The translations under genes and the position numbers were made by a program. Below are positions 57,910-64,000 of a stretch of DNA of 64,000 bases, in pieces. Positions within the stretch are counted from its first letter, which is position 1. The number at the start of each line of letters is the position of its first letter. The notes below the pieces were generated by a model. The model had not been told where the DNA came from, searched no databases, and saw nothing but the letters and a program-made list of their open reading frames with translations. Location of the stretch: the sequence record SRR31156797_5453; one strand, given 5' to 3'.

Positions 57910-58017
57910 ATTGTTTCCCTCTTTTCTTATAAGGATAGTTTGACTGAGGGATTGATCCTTCCAATGTCAAATATTCCTATCTATTATACCGAAGAATCCA
58001 AAGAAAAGCCATGGCAG

Positions 58018-58416
58018 CTAGCTTTCCTTTTTCTTGTTAGGTTGGTGATCGGTGGTTTGCAGTGCACGCTCAATTTCTTTGTTCAAGAAATAAGAGATGA
58101 CTGTTCGAATAATAACGACTGCAGCTAGACGTACGATGTCTTCGAAAGTAGGGTGGATGATCGTCTCAATAATATCTGCTGCAATCAAGATCTCAAGACC
58201 TAATAAGACATAACTCCCTAAATAATTGCGGATAAAATTATTCTCTCTGGCTGCCACCAAACGGTCCTTTTCTGTTAATTCGTAGCGCACGAAATCAATG
58301 CCTGCGATCAATACACCCCAAACGATGACGAAAATGGAGAGAAAGTTTAAACAGACAACAATGAAATCGAAGATTGGGTTGGCTCCAGTCATCAAAGAAC
58401 TAGCTAGATTATGCAT
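58018..58416 (-). CDS. DUF1622 membrane protein
   Basis: LGSYVLLGLEILIAADIIETI and IRTVISYFL motifs; AGGAG RBS. Confidence 0.85.
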   Translation of the reverse strand: MHNLASSLMTGANPIFDFIVVCLNFLSIFVIVWGVLIAGIDFVRYELTEKDRLVAARENNFIRNYLGSYVLLGLEILIAADIIETIIHPTFEDIVRLAAVVIIRTVISYFLNKEIERALQTTDHQPNKKKES

Positions 58417-58542
58417 AATGACTCCTTTACCGTTTTCTTTTATCTTACCGAATTATCGAAGAAATGTGAAGTTTCTTGACGTTCTAGAAGGGAATTGATA
58501 GTATGAATTAATAGTAGGATTTTTAAAAAAGGTGGGCAAATT

Positions 58543-59118
58543 ATGGAACAAGTTAGGAACTTTGTTCATTACACGAAAGAAAAAACAGTGGAAAGCTGGC
58601 AGGCTTTGTTAGATGATCTATACCGAGATCAGAAAAAAACGATTTTCACGCTGATCGGAGGCATTCTTTTCGCGCTGGTTTTTGCAGGCTTGATCGTTTT
58701 TTCTCAAAATCGCATCAACGCCTCTTTAGTGGATCGAATCGCTTTCGACAAGTTACCTTCGGAAAAAGTACAGCCATTACCATATTTGACAGCTGATAAG
58801 ACGATTCGAGAAACAAGAGCGATTTCTGTGATGTACAGTAAACCAAATGGCCCACAGCTGGATCAAGTGTTTGATCTGATCCAAGCACAGGAAGACGAAA
58901 TGAATCGAACATTTTTTTATTATCCGATCGTCTATGACGTGGCATTTTTCTCCAATGAATATGACATTGATCCTGATAAAGTGACCTTTGTCTTCTATGA
59001 AGAAGGAGTCGAGAAAAATCGCTTTACTTTTGATTCATTTGAGCAGCCAACGACGGAATTCATCCCAGAATTGAATCGTTTACCCATGTGGACGATTCGT
59101 TCTTCTGCCAATGATTGA
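58543..59118 (+). CDS. Membrane-anchored thioredoxin-like protein with no CxxC
   Basis: One TM; ISVMYSKPNG...FFYYPI...YDI..VTFVFYEEGVEKNR follows a thioredoxin-fold pattern; no Cys in the protein. Confidence 0.6.
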   Translation: MEQVRNFVHYTKEKTVESWQALLDDLYRDQKKTIFTLIGGILFALVFAGLIVFSQNRINASLVDRIAFDKLPSEKVQPLPYLTADKTIRETRAISVMYSKPNGPQLDQVFDLIQAQEDEMNRTFFYYPIVYDVAFFSNEYDIDPDKVTFVFYEEGVEKNRFTFDSFEQPTTEFIPELNRLPMWTIRSSAND

Positions 59119-59149
59119 TAAAAAAATCTGACAATTTGACAGAAAATTG

Positions 59150-59178
59150 TTGACGTTTTTTTATCAATAGGCTAAACT
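59150..59178 (+). promoter_or_regulatory. sigmaA promoter for the Trp leader and ABC transporter
   Basis: TTGACG-17 nt-TAAACT. Confidence 0.75.
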
Positions 59179-59222
59179 GAATTCAATCAAGAAAGAAAAC
59201 AAGTTGAGAAGGAGGAACAATC

Positions 59223-59276
59223 ATGAAACTATTTATTCCATTGCAAGTGAAATCATGGCAAAACTGGCGTAGATAG
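59223..59276 (+). CDS. Putative Trp-sensing leader peptide MKLFIPLQVKSWQNWRR (17 aa)
   Basis: AAGGAGG RBS upstream; two TGG codons at 59256 and 59265; stop overlaps an attenuator helix; lies upstream of a TrpX-type transporter. Confidence 0.85.
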   Translation: MKLFIPLQVKSWQNWRR

Positions 59277-59434
59277 TTGTATTGATGGGACCTCATTCCA
59301 TAGATACAACTTTTTAGAGAACCTTCTAAAGTGCTGTATCTATGCTGGTAGTTGAATTTATCGCCGCATAGGACAACCTTCTATGCGGCTTTTGCTTACT
59401 TGCAATTGCCGTCACATAGGCAGTTGCTTTTTTT
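59275..59434 (+). promoter_or_regulatory. Attenuator with alternative helices and two terminators
   Basis: Helix 59275-59290/59296-59311; competing 59299-59308/59335-59344; antiterminator 59339-59349/59363-59372; terminators at 59363-59393 and 59402-59434. Confidence 0.8.
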
Positions 59435-59495
59435 GTTCTCAAAAACCGTAAAAACGAAAACATGAAAAACTTAAGCAGAAAAAGGAGAATGAAAA

Positions 59496-60548
59496 ATGAA
59501 AAACAAGGGATTAATTGCATCGGTTGCCGTTATTTTATTATTTTTAGGAGCGACCTTTGTCTATCAGTTAGGAATGAGAAGTGGGACCAATCAAGCCAGT
59601 GAGACTTCGGAACCAGTAGAAAAAGCTGAAAAAACAGTTGGGATCCTGCAGTTTGTCAGTCATGAAGCGTTAGATGCGATCACCGAGGGGATCAAAGAAG
59701 GCCTTAAAGAATCAGGCTATACCGAAGGGGACAACTTGACGATCGAATTCCAAAACGGCCAAGCGGATCAAAGTAAATTGGCAACGATGAGTCAGCAGCT
59801 GCTAAATAAAGATGCCGACGTTTTGGTTGGGGTAGCAACACCCGCAGCACAAGCGTTGGCGAATGTCACTCAGGATGTACCAATCGTTTTAGGAGCGGTC
59901 ACTGATCCAGTTGGGGCAAATCTCGTGGCAGATATGGATCAACCCGGCGGAAATATCACTGGTGTTTCAGATAAAGCACCCGTCGCTGCGCAAATCAAAC
60001 TAGCAAAAGATTTGCTACCGGAGGCAAAAACAGTCGGCATTTTGTATTCTTCGACCGAAGACAATTCGAAATACCAAGTGGCAGAAGCAGAAGCTGCTGC
60101 CGAAGAAAATGGCTTGACCAGCAAATCGTATGCCGTTCCTTCAAGTAACGAAATTGCTCAAATGGTGCAAGTGATGGCACGAGAAGTCGACTTTATCTAT
60201 ATTCCGTTAGATAATACGATTGCAAACGCAATGCAGACGGTAGTACAAGAAGCCAATAAATCAAAAACGCCCATCATCACGTCTGTTGATACGATGGTGG
60301 AACAAGGCGGCTTAGCAACGGTTGGGCAAGATCAATTTACGATTGGGGTCGAAACCGGGAAGATGGTGGCAGCAATTCTTGACGGGACGGCCGAACCTGC
60401 GACAACGCCGATCTATACATTCAGCGATGGCGAAACGATCATTAATGAAACACAAGCGCAGTTATTGGGAATCACTATCCCAGAAAACCTCAAAGACGAG
60501 GCAAAATTGATTACAACGACACCGGAAAGTGAAGCAAGTGATGAGTAA
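59496..60548 (+). CDS. trpX: ABC transporter substrate-binding protein, TrpX-like (aromatic amino acid)
   Basis: VGILQFVSHEALD, NGQADQS, ATPAAQA, AVTDPV, GGNITGVSD, SSTEDNS, DNTIA; the Trp leader supports Trp specificity. Confidence 0.85.
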   Translation: MKNKGLIASVAVILLFLGATFVYQLGMRSGTNQASETSEPVEKAEKTVGILQFVSHEALDAITEGIKEGLKESGYTEGDNLTIEFQNGQADQSKLATMSQQLLNKDADVLVGVATPAAQALANVTQDVPIVLGAVTDPVGANLVADMDQPGGNITGVSDKAPVAAQIKLAKDLLPEAKTVGILYSSTEDNSKYQVAEAEAAAEENGLTSKSYAVPSSNEIAQMVQVMAREVDFIYIPLDNTIANAMQTVVQEANKSKTPIITSVDTMVEQGGLATVGQDQFTIGVETGKMVAAILDGTAEPATTPIYTFSDGETIINETQAQLLGITIPENLKDEAKLITTTPESEASDE

Positions 60549-60623
60549 CAATTAGGAACAGCAATCACCTGCGATCACCGAGAGAGTCTTGAAAGAGAAA
60601 ACTTGTAAGAATATGGAGGAAGA

Positions 60624-61511
60624 ATGATGATTGTTTCAGCAATAGGGCAAGGGCTACTTTGGGGAATCCTGGGATTAGGGATTTTTATGACCTATCGTAT
60701 TTTGAATTTCCCGGATATGACGACGGAAGGGTCCTTTCCGTTAGGCGGTGCTGTCTGTGTGACAGCGATCACCCATGGGGTGTCGCCCGTCTTAGCGACT
60801 TTGTTAGGAGTATTGGCTGGGATGTGTGCGGGCTGTGTGACAGGACTTCTTTATACAAAAGGCAAAATTCCCGTGATTTTAGCAGGTATTTTGGTGATGT
60901 CTTCATTGAACTCGGTCATGCTGTTTGTGATGCGCTCACCAAACCTCTCTTTATTAAACCAACCGAAAATTCAAGATTTTTTTACTAGAATGAATTTACC
61001 GAATTATTATGATACGGTGATTATCGGATTGATCATGGTCTTGTTGATTGGGGGCGTCTTGGTTTACTTTTTCCATACCAACTTGGGTCAAGCTTATATT
61101 GCTACCGGGGATAATGAACACATGGCCAAGTCAATGGGAATCAATACGGATCGAATGAAAATCATTGGACTGATCGTCTCCAATGGCGTGATCGCACTCT
61201 CAGGCGCATTGATCGCTCAAAACGACGGCTACGCCGACATAAGCAAGGGAATCGGTGTGATCGTTATCGGACTGGCGTCAATCATCATTGGTGAGGTATT
61301 ATATGGTGAATTGACCTTGCTGGAACGTCTGATCGCTATCGTGATCGGCAGCATTATCTACCAATTATTGATACTATTTGTGATCAAAGCTGGATTTGAT
61401 ACGACTTACTTGAAGATCTTCTCTGCAATCGTCTTGACGATCTGCCTGTTGATCCCTCAATTTAAACAAGCCTTGCATCTACGCACTGGTTTTGAAACGG
61501 AGGATGAATAA
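60624..61511 (+). CDS. ABC transporter permease (TrpY-like)
   Basis: RILNFPDMTTEGSFPLG, ATGDN, GVIVIGLASIIIGE. Confidence 0.9.
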   Translation: MMIVSAIGQGLLWGILGLGIFMTYRILNFPDMTTEGSFPLGGAVCVTAITHGVSPVLATLLGVLAGMCAGCVTGLLYTKGKIPVILAGILVMSSLNSVMLFVMRSPNLSLLNQPKIQDFFTRMNLPNYYDTVIIGLIMVLLIGGVLVYFFHTNLGQAYIATGDNEHMAKSMGINTDRMKIIGLIVSNGVIALSGALIAQNDGYADISKGIGVIVIGLASIIIGEVLYGELTLLERLIAIVIGSIIYQLLILFVIKAGFDTTYLKIFSAIVLTICLLIPQFKQALHLRTGFETEDE

Positions 61512-62269
61512 TGTTAGCCTTAAAAAAAGCCTTTAAAGTTGTCGGCAACGGACCGAATGAGAAAAAAGTGCTCTTGAATAAAATCGATCTTTCTTTAAAA
61601 CCAGGAGAATTTGTCACGGTCGTCGGAGGAAATGGCGCCGGCAAAAGTACGCTATTCAACTGCATCTCAGGCACCATGCCCTTGACGAGTGGGCAAGTGA
61701 TGATCGATGATCAAAACGTGACCGCACTTTCGGAAGAAAAACGTGCCCGCTTTTTGGCACGTGTCTTCCAAGACCCGAAAATGGGCACTGCTCCCCGTAT
61801 GACAGTGGCAGAAAATCTGCTGTTAGCACAAAAAAGAGGGCAAAAACGGTCACTTGGTCTTCGACAACTCCAAGGACAAAGGGAAATGTTCTTTGCGCTT
61901 TGTAAAGAAATCGGCAATGGGTTGGAAAATCATTTGGATACGCCAACGGGCAGTTTATCTGGTGGTCAACGACAGGCACTAAGTTTATTGATGGCAACGA
62001 TTCAAACACCAAAACTGTTGTTGCTAGATGAACATACGGCTGCGTTAGACCCAAAGACCTCCAAACAGCTGATGCAAATCACTGCAAGACGCGTGGAAGA
62101 ACAAAACCTAACTTGTCTCATGATCACCCATCGGATGGAAGATGCATTAAAATACGGAGACCGCCTGATCCTGCTCAGAAAAGGGGAAATCGTCAAGGAT
62201 CTTTCAGCAGATGAAAAAGCTCGCTTAAGTTTACCAGAACTGTTACTGTTCTTTGAAGACGACTTATAA
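61511..62269 (+). CDS. ABC transporter ATP-binding protein (TrpZ-like)
   Basis: GGNGAGKST, RVFQDP, LSGGQRQ, LLLDEHTAALDP, ITH. Confidence 0.93.
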   Translation: MLALKKAFKVVGNGPNEKKVLLNKIDLSLKPGEFVTVVGGNGAGKSTLFNCISGTMPLTSGQVMIDDQNVTALSEEKRARFLARVFQDPKMGTAPRMTVAENLLLAQKRGQKRSLGLRQLQGQREMFFALCKEIGNGLENHLDTPTGSLSGGQRQALSLLMATIQTPKLLLLDEHTAALDPKTSKQLMQITARRVEEQNLTCLMITHRMEDALKYGDRLILLRKGEIVKDLSADEKARLSLPELLLFFEDDL

Positions 62270-62334
62270 GCCCTTGATAGAACAGTGTTTTCAAAAAAAA
62301 TAATCAAATAAATGAAAAAAATAAGAAAAAATCA

Positions 62335-62363
62335 TTGACATCTTTCAAAGTTAAACCTATACT
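62335..62363 (+). promoter_or_regulatory. sigmaA promoter of the aro operon
   Basis: TTGACA-17 nt-TATACT. Confidence 0.9.
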
Positions 62364-62398
62364 TAGGTCAATCTTACATCAGTTTGGAGCGAAGGACT

Positions 62399-62464
62399 AT
62401 GCAAAAATTATTGCTAACGAACCCCACACAACTGAATAAATATTACTTTAGCTATTTTAGATAG
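62399..62464 (+). CDS. Putative Tyr/Phe-sensing leader peptide MQKLLLTNPTQLNKYYFSYFR (21 aa)
   Basis: Starts about 30 nt after the inferred transcription start; GGAG and AAGGA upstream; TAT TAC TTT AGC TAT TTT cluster just before AGA TAG; precedes aroE-aroF. Confidence 0.85.
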   Translation: MQKLLLTNPTQLNKYYFSYFR

Positions 62465-62663
62465 GTTTGTATTCATGAAGGCATGGGTACAAACGCTAAG
62501 TTTGTATCTATGATGGCTAGAGCATTTCGTAATGAATTCGCAGCCACGTAGATCGTAAAATCTATAGTGGCTATTTTTTATATTCACATATCGGCGCTGT
62601 CGCTATGTAATGTTTGAAGGTGTTCACTGTAGATTCTTAAATTTACGGTGGACATCTTTTTTT
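62465..62663 (+). promoter_or_regulatory. Attenuator with alternative helices and two terminators
   Basis: Helix 62465-62477/62482-62494; competing 62482-62494/62500-62512; antiterminator 62506-62518/62542-62553; terminators at 62542-62579 and 62617-62663. Confidence 0.85.
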
Positions 62664-62682
62664 GTTGAAAGGAATGAACCAG

Positions 62683-63552
62683 ATGAAACAAATGATAACC
62701 GGTCACACACGGTTGGCGGCACTATTTGCCAAACCAGCCAAACACAGCATCTCTCCAGCGATGCACAATCTTTCTTTTGAAGAACAAGGGATCGACGCCG
62801 TGTATCTGGCCTTTGATGTTGAGCCGGATGATTTAGCCGCTAGTATCCAAAGCATCCGTCAGTTGGATCTCTTAGGTGTCAATCTATCAATGCCCCATAA
62901 AATGGCAGCAGTACCGTTGATGGATGAATGCTCACCAGCAGCCGAGCTGATCGGCGCAATCAATACAATCGTCAATCAAGAGGGGCGATTGATTGGGCAC
63001 AATACAGATGGTATCGGCTTTATGCGCGCACTTGAAGACATTCAAGTGTCGATCATTGGAAAAACGATGACTGTGATCGGTGCAGGTGGAGCAGCGACAG
63101 CAATCATTAGTCAAGCTGCACTAGATGGTGTCAAAACAATCCGTGTCTTTAACCGCAAGGATGAGTTTTATCCAATCATCCAGGAAAAATTGACACAGAT
63201 CGCAGAAAAGACCGCCTCTGAAATCACATTAACGGATTTAGAAGATCAGACGGCTCTAAAAACAGCCATCGATCAAAGCAGTCTTTTAGTTAATGCTACT
63301 GGCGTGGGGATGAAGTCGAATGATACGGTAAGTCCTCTAAAAGACAAAACACTCTTGCGGGAATCATTAGCTGTCTATGATGTCATCTATAATCCAAGAG
63401 AAACGCAGCTTTTGAAAGATGCGAAAGAAGTCGGTGCCAAAACTGCAAACGGCTTAAGCATGTTGCTGTATCAAGGTGCAGCTGCATTTAAACTTTGGAC
63501 AGGCCAAGAAATGCCTGTTGAAAAAGTAAAAGCACTTATTGAGTCCATGTAA
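62683..63552 (+). CDS. aroE: Shikimate dehydrogenase
   Basis: HSISPAMHN, NLSMPHK, GAINTI, NTDGIGF, GAGGAA, NATGVGM, MLLYQG; AAAGGA RBS before ATG 62683. Confidence 0.95.
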   Translation: MKQMITGHTRLAALFAKPAKHSISPAMHNLSFEEQGIDAVYLAFDVEPDDLAASIQSIRQLDLLGVNLSMPHKMAAVPLMDECSPAAELIGAINTIVNQEGRLIGHNTDGIGFMRALEDIQVSIIGKTMTVIGAGGAATAIISQAALDGVKTIRVFNRKDEFYPIIQEKLTQIAEKTASEITLTDLEDQTALKTAIDQSSLLVNATGVGMKSNDTVSPLKDKTLLRESLAVYDVIYNPRETQLLKDAKEVGAKTANGLSMLLYQGAAAFKLWTGQEMPVEKVKALIESM

Positions 63553-63592
63553 AAAATAAAAAAATTAGAAAAAACGAAAGTAGGAAGAAAAA

Positions 63593-64000
63593 ATGATCGT
63601 AATTATGAAACCAGGCGCTACGCCAGAACAAGTTGAAGTTGTTGTAACTAGAATCAAAAAAGAAGGCTTAGATGTTCAAGTCAACCAAGGAAAAGAACAG
63701 GTCGTTATCGGGTTAAAAGGGGATACACGCCGCATCCAAGATGTTGCTTTTCGCAGCTACGAAGGTGTCGAAGATGCCATTCGGATCTCAAATACTTACA
63801 AATTGACCTCTCGTGAGTTCCATCCGCAAGATACGGTTGTGGATGTAGATGGTGTGAAAATCGGTGACGGCAACTTTGTTACGATGGCTGGTCCATGTTC
63901 GATTGAAGGCTTAGACCAAATTCGTGAATGTGCCCGAATCGCCAAAGCTGGTGGTGCACAAATCTTACGTGGTGGTGCCTTCAAACCCCGCACGTCGCCT
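63593..64000 (+). CDS. aroF: DAHP synthase (3-deoxy-7-phosphoheptulonate synthase, type I-beta with N-terminal regulatory domain), runs off the window end; absent from the ORF track
   Basis: Translates as MIVIMKPGATPEQV...YKLTSREFHP...AGPCSIE...LRGGAFKPRTSP. Confidence 0.95.
   Translation, partial: MIVIMKPGATPEQVEVVVTRIKKEGLDVQVNQGKEQVVIGLKGDTRRIQDVAFRSYEGVEDAIRISNTYKLTSREFHPQDTVVDVDGVKIGDGNFVTMAGPCSIEGLDQIRECARIAKAGGAQILRGGAFKPRTSP

Follow-up and report, generated by a model that had tools for sequence, protein, structure and literature searches.

Does the chain of hairpins that precedes a tryptophan transporter gene at positions 59,223 to 59,434 of a 64,000-nucleotide stretch of DNA (sequence record SRR31156797_5453; the whole stretch is called the window, and all coordinates count from its first letter) regulate that gene, and if so, what does it sense? 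A first-pass annotation, made from the letters alone, had read this segment as a Trp leader peptide and transcription attenuator upstream of a TrpX-type ABC transporter, with charged tRNA-Trp as the signal. On evidence that is comparative or computed throughout, we put the probability that the element is a ribosome-mediated Trp transcription attenuator at roughly 85%; most likely, it senses tRNA-Trp charging and controls the trpX-type Trp ABC transporter operon. Ribosome footprint geometry, kinetics and the regulation itself are what we infer. The first-pass annotation contained neither the match to the Rfam trpB motif, nor the additional helix 0:3, nor the paralogous Tyr/Phe attenuator that are described here.

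The underlying signals were read directly from the window (Table 1). The leader open reading frame (ORF) is preceded by a Shine-Dalgarno (SD) sequence, and its TGG codons at 59256-59258 and 59265-59267 make two of the last six sense codons Trp. Helix 1:2 starts inside the stop codon and pairs 59275-59288 with 59298-59311 (13 of 14 pairs), CATAGATACA (59299-59308) is the exact complement of TGTATCTATG (59335-59344), GCATAG (59366-59371) is complementary to CTATGC (59340-59345), and the terminator T1 has a stem of 11 pairs (59363-59389) followed by TTTT; every one of these features of the first-pass annotation was present. The start of segment 1 lies 12 nt downstream of the second TGG's first base, a distance that would place it approximately at the leading edge of a ribosome stalled at this codon. 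The fold of 59200-59440 has an energy of -84.6 kcal/mol (z = -6.6), with 0 of 200 shuffled sequences folding as well, and 58900-59700 holds three terminator-like sites versus 0.7 ± 0.8 in shuffles. The scan for promoter-like sites stayed at chance level (one site versus 1.9 ± 1.3 in shuffles).

In the proposed mechanism, transcription probably starts near 59185, the 17-codon leader would be translated, and the position of the ribosome would set which of two registers is adopted by six RNA segments (0 - 5). With plentiful Trp, the ribosome would reach the stop codon at 59274-59276 and cover segments 0 and 1, segments 2:3 would form the hairpin P1 and 4:5 the terminator T1, and transcription would stop near 59393, with the terminator-like hairpin T2 near 59434 as a back-up. 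With scarce Trp, it would stall with the TGG at 59256 or 59265 in the A site, covering segment 0 and leaving segment 1 free; 1:2 would then form, segment 3 would pair with segment 4, T1 would be blocked, and the polymerase would read into trpX. Where the leader is not translated, 0:3 and 1:2 would form and leave segment 4 free for T1, and helix 0:3 may thus make termination the default.

Both registers were examined in an alignment of 99 distinct Trp-type leaders, with the window (59238-59404) as first row. The terminating register, P1 (2:3) plus T1 (4:5), was paired in 87.4% of the alignment cells against 29 - 52% for slid controls, with 18 of 30 pairs changing on both sides; T1 alone reached 94.6%, with such changes in 9 of 10 pairs. 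The competing register, 1:2 plus 3:4, was paired in 89.2% of cells (slid controls 26 - 52%) and had changes on both sides in 12 of 21 pairs. Columns 127, 184 and 220, which lie in segments 3, 4 and 5, covary as C-G-C or U-A-U, as expected if segment 4 pairs alternately with segments 3 and 5. Helix 0:3 (59263-59275 with 59337-59349) was paired in 84.6% of cells versus 30 - 46% in slid controls, with 7 of 13 pairs changing on both sides; it is moderately supported, its covariation being weaker than that of the other registers. In the window, the computed energies are -17.8 kcal/mol for P1, -17.8 kcal/mol for T1, -12.9 kcal/mol for 1:2 (-16.7 kcal/mol with the inner hairpin) and -7.6 kcal/mol for 3:4.

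For masked folds, the ribosome footprint was held single-stranded, with the mask extending to +12 when a Trp codon occupied the A site. Folding without a ribosome gave 0:3 and 1:2, then T1; a ribosome at the stop gave P1, then T1; and with a ribosome at one of the Trp codons and the transcript extended as far as segment 4, the fold was 1:2 plus 3:4. Partial transcripts constrained by a ribosome at the Trp codons or at the stop are thus predicted to switch as attenuation requires.

The leader itself is conserved well beyond the window. For this comparison, 119 match sites of the Rfam family discussed below were taken from the family and order samples (30 loci from the family sample, 28 from the order sample, L001, and 60 chosen to include every match of the order sample outside family f1 and second copies within genomes), and nine further sites came from the class and phylum samples, giving a total of 128. 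Leader ORFs were defined by an SD-like site, a start codon, 8 - 60 codons and a stop between -50 and +30 of the P1 start. An SD-preceded ORF stood at the expected place in 113 of 119 loci; within its last 12 codons, 99 loci had at least one Trp codon and 76 at least two. At control anchors, shifted or on the reverse strand, within these loci, an SD-preceded ORF was present in 2 - 29 of 119 and one with Trp in 0 - 10 of 119; for shuffled upstream regions, the values were 175 and 22 of 2380, respectively. Most often the leader ends in W-Q-(N/S/T)-W-R-R-stop, and its N-terminal portion is variable in both sequence and length. Another 20 loci, drawn from six genera within the same family, all had SD-ATG...W-x-x-W-R-R-stop; in these, the stop is TAG, TAA or TGA at a fixed position, with synonymous changes (GTG/GTC, AAC/AAT) and 3-nt length changes within genera. 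Overall, the ORF with its Trp codons, frame, SD sequence and stop position was kept before the orthologous hairpin in all 51 same-family leaders read (31 + 20). Six families in the order have Trp-coded leaders; in families f2, f4 and f9, many of the leaders carry a single Trp codon (W-Q-S-R/H/Q...).

The 3' part of the element belongs to a described RNA class. Positions 59297-59400 match the trpB motif (Rfam RF04312) over model positions 1-107 of 107, with 50.8 bits and an E-value of 3.4e-5, missing the gathering cut-off of 59; the window copy is a sub-threshold homologue of RF04312 rather than a curated member, and scores within its family range from below 50 to 71.6 bits. It has a P1 with the conserved AGAUAC...GUAUCU arms, a linker and an intrinsic terminator, with the pairs kept in 99 homologues, and lies in the typical context, 5' of an amino-acid-type ABC transporter or trpB. 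Matches (E up to 1e-3) were found in 133 of 134 genomes of the family of the nearest genome, 52 of them with scores over the cut-off. In the order sample, 90 of 151 genomes matched, distributed over families f1 (20/20), f2 (17/19), f3 (1/19), f4 (14/19), f5 (12/18), f6 (0/2), f7 (0/18), f8 (16/18) and f9 (10/18). The class sample had matches in 12 of 151 genomes and the phylum sample in 2 of 151, the latter giving no basis for statements on the RF04312 class outside Bacilli.

The motif called trpB (SRC-39-1; Narunsky et al., NAR 2024) was introduced as an orphan 'strong riboswitch candidate' with over 900 representatives, from Firmicutes and Fusobacteria, most commonly associated with an uncharacterised ABC transporter (PMC11109978). 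Its P1 hairpin, linker and intrinsic terminator align with those of the window element, which likewise lies 5' of an ABC transporter; the Rfam model and, in its available text, the description begin at P1, without the leader ORF and segments 0 and 1 (PMC11109978). The describers favour a riboswitch, whereas the leader peptide would explain the element here (PMC11109978). In the literature searched, with subscription journals and supplements outside its scope, no paper connected a Trp leader peptide with trpX, Enterococcus or the trpB motif. This orphan riboswitch candidate is probably explained by a leader-peptide attenuator, which would provide it with a testable mechanism and spare a ligand hunt that is likely to fail.

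A further comparison is that between leader codons and the function of the downstream gene. Loci were grouped by their first downstream ORF using BLAST clusters, Pfam and NCBIfam, and the 128 sites fell into four classes. Trp-coded leaders were found at 99 sites, 90 of them before binding proteins of family PF04392; the others precede trpB-like genes (5 of 5 leaders with two Trp codons), trpP (1 of 1, with one Trp codon) and, at one site, a family-5 binding protein (two Trp codons), or lack any ORF of 90 aa within 600 nt (L041 and L052, two Trp codons each). Tyr/Phe-coded leaders, such as ...YYFSYFR, account for 18 sites. All nine leaders before aroE/aroB/aroC (eight related loci and the window's own) have 4 - 5 Tyr/Phe codons and no Trp codon; eight Tyr/Phe leaders stand in front of PF04392 binding proteins, five of these in the order and three in family f100; of the remaining two, one is at the end of a contig and the other, rich in Tyr, precedes a gene for a sodium-dependent transporter. 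His-coded leaders were found at all four hisZ-like sites, with 3 - 4 His codons each and the endings ...NHHNHHMK, ...FHHHHRFKGL, ...YYHHHHRCKGL and ...YHYHHHSCKGL; these RF04312 matches are L104 in the order and L148, L151 and L154 in another family of the class. The remaining seven sites, including those between hpf-like and secA genes and those at the ends of long ORFs, have no plausible leader and look like false RF04312 matches. Tyr/Phe or His codons replace those for Trp where homologous scaffolds precede aro or his genes, and this supports Trp attenuation in the window, as do the maintained ORF and Trp codons and the covariation of helices 1:2 and 3:4.

The same division is seen in the binding proteins. 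A quick maximum-likelihood tree, built from 98 of them, separates the 90 that stand behind Trp leaders from the eight behind Tyr/Phe leaders by a single branch (SH-aLRT 99). The trpX product of the window passed the NCBIfam equivalog model NF041285 (ABC_SBP_TrpX) with 464.2 bits at a cut-off of 390, which lends weight to Trp as the transporter substrate, as had been suggested at first. All three Trp-type proteins tested passed this cut-off (464, 462 and 419 bits), and all five Tyr/Phe-type proteins tested missed it (269 - 384 bits). Leader codons may thus serve as functional annotation for transporters, separating Trp from Tyr/Phe clades of PF04392 and pointing to a Tyr-linked sodium-dependent transporter. 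The Tyr/Phe-leader clade of PF04392 (L095, L116, L118, L124, L126, L150, L152 and L153) comprises candidate Tyr/Phe ABC transporters. The sodium-dependent transporter (NF037979) is that of L069 (RF04312 match at 1501-1658 of the locus), in a distant family of the phylum, behind a longer linker and the Tyr-rich leader ...AYYCNYYRQSLY (also given as ...NNAYYCNYYRQSLY) with four Tyr codons.

The Tyr/Phe type is represented in the window itself, 3 kb downstream of the Trp element. The leader of this copy, MQKLLLTNPTQLNKYYFSYFR, starts with ATG at 62399 and stops at 62462-62464; it is followed by AGATAGGTTTGTAT..., by alternative hairpins, and by a terminator at 62542-62572 with a T-run. In masked folds, it showed the same switching logic as the Trp element. 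It lies before aroE and an ORF that we take, from its sequence, to be DAHP-synthase-like. The Rfam family RF02863 (Enterococcus sRNA_2410) matches 62448-62638 with 85.8 bits, and shares with the Trp element its architecture and AGC...AGA-TAG at the same codon positions, but its leader codes for YYFSYFR and precedes aroE. In E. faecium, sRNA_2410 is a Northern-validated small RNA (sRNA) of 195 nt with two transcripts, catalogued as sRNA and, in the available text, not described as an attenuator (PMC5593968). This RNA fits a prematurely terminated leader, and the catalogued Enterococcus sRNA can be re-read as the terminated product of an aromatic-pathway attenuator.

Four other explanations were weighed against attenuation by a translating ribosome. 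The describers' leading reading, a riboswitch, would have Trp or a related metabolite directly bound by P1 together with its flanks, with the ligand-stabilised P1 allowing the terminator to form; covariation, the terminator and the anti-terminator in the right shoulder of P1, all noted by them, speak for it (PMC11109978), as do the unusually conserved stem sequences. Yet P1 is a plain hairpin without an obvious multi-helix pocket, the first TGG is at least 90% conserved although it lies outside all helices, and one scaffold stands before Trp, Tyr/Phe and His genes, the systematic difference being the codons of the SD-preceded upstream ORF. This tracking of downstream gene function by leader codons is the main argument against a riboswitch, which we consider very unlikely; in their own account, the describers could rule out neither a classic attenuator nor a protein factor (PMC11109978). 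A protein factor, TRAP-like or a new RNA-binding protein, would choose the fold by binding to CAUAGAUAC-like elements that recur; repeats of CAUAGAUA-like sequence, and of its complement, do occur and are highly conserved across families. These repeats are, however, explained by the two pairing partners of each segment, the TRAP family PF02081 was found in none of four related genomes under conditions in which the B. subtilis control matched, and the pathway-dependent leader codons would stay unexplained; such a protein is less probable still.

A mechanism like that of TnaC deserves about the same slight credence as a protein factor. Here the W-Q-x-W-R-R peptide would sense free Trp and, at high levels of it, arrest the ribosome at the stop, where it would remain on segments 0 and 1 and enforce termination, perhaps alongside tRNA sensing. 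Such an arrest would have the right sign, the C-terminus of the peptide is conserved beyond its Trp codons, and the Gln codon is conserved without a pairing role in the RNA; but most of the conserved codons fall within segment 0, which does have a pairing role, and Tyr/Phe and His leaders differ in their C-termini while sharing the architecture. The least likely of the four is that the element regulates nothing, being an independent small RNA or peptide gene with tandem terminators that lies before trpX by chance. The aro-type element has been listed among sRNAs, and a short transcript of it accumulates (PMC5593968), as would be expected of such a gene, but the elements always lie on the same strand, 5' of cognate amino-acid genes, the anti-terminator pairing covaries, and the scan of 59434-59496 found no separate promoter-like site there.

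Several observations weigh against attenuation by ribosome stalling as we propose it. Since the loci are related, the leader counts overstate independent support, and of the 95 leaders that precede PF04392 binding proteins, 22 carry just one Trp codon and would be less sensitive as sensors. Equilibrium favours P1 plus T1 (-35.6 kcal/mol) over 1:2, the inner hairpin and 3:4 (-24.3 kcal/mol), and T1 is present in the full-length minimum-energy fold under every ribosome mask; therefore, read-through must be kinetic, and only folds of partial transcripts are informative on anti-termination. A kinetic basis of anti-termination is usual for attenuators. The RNA scaffold is unusually conserved, and so is the Gln codon CAA (59259-59261) after the first Trp codon, which is at least 90% conserved over 99 leaders and outside every proposed helix, so that something besides codon content may be read. 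Finally, T2 follows T1, with nothing established that lets the polymerase pass it. A T2-like hairpin with a U-run was found at the same place in 50 of 99 related leaders under a strict rule, and of 14 other loci folded, most retain T2 in their minimum-energy fold. When segment 4 is unavailable, segment 5 pairs with the 5' arm and loop of T2 (GCCG...CATAG) in the window fold, which would abolish T2 in the read-through register, and cognate 5:6 duplexes have -6.9 kcal/mol versus -5.5 for non-cognate and -4.8 for shuffled ones (48 distinct pairs). A switching of T2 together with T1 by 5:6 pairing is weakly supported by these values; the chain may extend to the second terminator (5:6 versus 6:7), with one ribosome position setting three successive hairpins.

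In its logic, the element resembles the attenuators of enterobacteria (trpL of E. coli; the six-segment his-operon type, A-F), in which a stalled ribosome gives B:C plus D:E and a finished one C:D plus E:F. Shared are a short ORF with cognate codons, chained overlapping hairpins, a register set by the ribosome and a final intrinsic terminator, and the his-type logic matches 1:2 plus 3:4 versus 2:3 plus 4:5 here. Three features that mark a leader-peptide attenuator were found: an ORF with SD sequence and start codon beside the first segment, cognate codons near its end, and, in silico, mutually exclusive terminator and anti-terminator folds (covariation of both registers, masked folds). It differs from the enterobacterial type in that a transporter would be regulated, a nested helix 0:3 is predicted for the untranslated state, a second terminator follows, and the proteobacterial Trp_leader model RF00513, searched up to E = 1 over 58000-64000, does not match. 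Classic leader-peptide attenuation is, to our knowledge, regarded as rare in Firmicutes. Leader-peptide attenuators for His have been reported in this phylum for the B. cereus group, Peptostreptococcaceae and Erysipelotrichales (PMC9413887) and for bacilli (PMC2965389), and RF04312 matches hisZ-linked elements with HHHH leaders, which may be the Erysipelotrichales His attenuators of the former report (PMC9413887). In their available text, these papers treat His only, without the trpB motif or Trp and Tyr/Phe leaders (PMC9413887, PMC2965389).

A different sensor is apparently used in one family of the order. The trpXYZ operon of S. suis, which encodes the same transporter family, has a T-box upstream and thus likewise a read-out of tRNA-Trp charging (PMC9382623). 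In family f3, a trpX homologue was found in 19 of 19 genomes, with a T-box upstream in 15 (14 over the cut-off), in agreement with the S. suis report (PMC9382623); the single RF04312 match of this family lies on a different contig from the trpX of that genome. A T-box binds uncharged tRNA directly, whereas a translated leader is proposed as the sensor of the window element, and the T-box model RF00230, which finds the T-boxes of f3 by the same method, gives no hit in 58000-64000 at E-values up to 1. With T-boxes before trpX in f3 and leader attenuators elsewhere, two different tRNA-charging sensors would serve the same gene, and in most of the order's families Trp uptake is apparently controlled, as a rule, by leader-peptide attenuation, with the T-box in its place in one. 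More broadly, we lean towards the view that the trpB motif class as a whole forms the 3' half of a single re-codable superfamily of leader-peptide attenuators of Bacilli, including sRNA_2410 and the hisZ-linked attenuators, and not a riboswitch. If true, one hairpin chain has been retargeted to Trp, Tyr/Phe or His by swapping a few leader codons, and these codons predict substrate specificity, as for the unnamed Tyr/Phe clade of TrpX-like binding proteins.

Table 1. Positions of the Trp element, its proposed RNA segments and the neighbouring features in the window.
Feature	Position	Strand	Remark
Promoter-like site TTGACG-17 nt-TAAACT	59150..59178	+	consensus match only
Shine-Dalgarno sequence AAGGAGG	59209..59215	+	7 nt 5' of ATG; read directly from the sequence
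Leader ORF MKLFIPLQVKSWQNWRR, 17 codons	59223..59273, stop TAG 59274-59276	+	ATG at 59223
Segment 0 (second Trp codon, two Arg codons, stop)	59263..59275	+	can pair with segment 3 (59337-59349)
Segment 1	59275..59290	+	partner: segment 2 (helix 1:2)
Segment 2, 5' arm of P1	59296..59311	+	partner: segment 1 or segment 3
Inner hairpin, tip of P1	59312..59331	+	-3.8 kcal/mol; 70% of alignment cells paired
Segment 3, 3' arm of P1 plus GCTGG	59335..59349	+	partner: segment 2, 4 or 0
Terminator T1: segment 4 (59363-59373), loop, segment 5 (59379-59389), TTTT	59363..59393	+	
Terminator-like hairpin T2 (59402-59427) plus TTTTTTT	59402..59434	+	directly 3' of T1
trpX, substrate-binding protein of Trp ABC transporter	59496..60548	+	PF04392, E 2e-94
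Permease, same transporter	60624-61511	+	PF02653 / PF00005 scan (permease + ATPase)
ATPase, same transporter	61511-62269	+	PF02653 / PF00005 scan (permease + ATPase)
Putative paralogous Tyr/Phe attenuator	62399..62579	+	3 kb downstream of Trp element
aroE	62662-63552		3' of Tyr/Phe element

Upstream of the leader, a 191-aa ORF (58543-59118) ends with a terminator-like hairpin of its own (59072-59099); it has no family match in Pfam or NCBIfam. Among 22 runs, 18 RNA entries are ant-metatranscriptome contigs, and contigs from four of these span the region; as contigs, they give no transcript ends, strand or level. A pattern derived from the Rfam consensus line was also scanned against the genome contigs and proved too narrow, with only one of 17 stretches being a real element (L084, Pediococcus argentinicus, leader MSKKQVQQLNNHWQSR). 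Two of the apparent false matches of RF04312, L132 (46.5 bits) and L135, consist of a hairpin and terminator between the end of an hpf-like ORF and secA, and no leader ORF was found at these sites. In several genomes, two trpX-like binding-protein genes stand in tandem behind one leader (G141, G156, G170, G078 and G079), and in G141:C3:57295-59199 the two trpX-like matches share a single open frame (674 aa), suggestive of a fusion.

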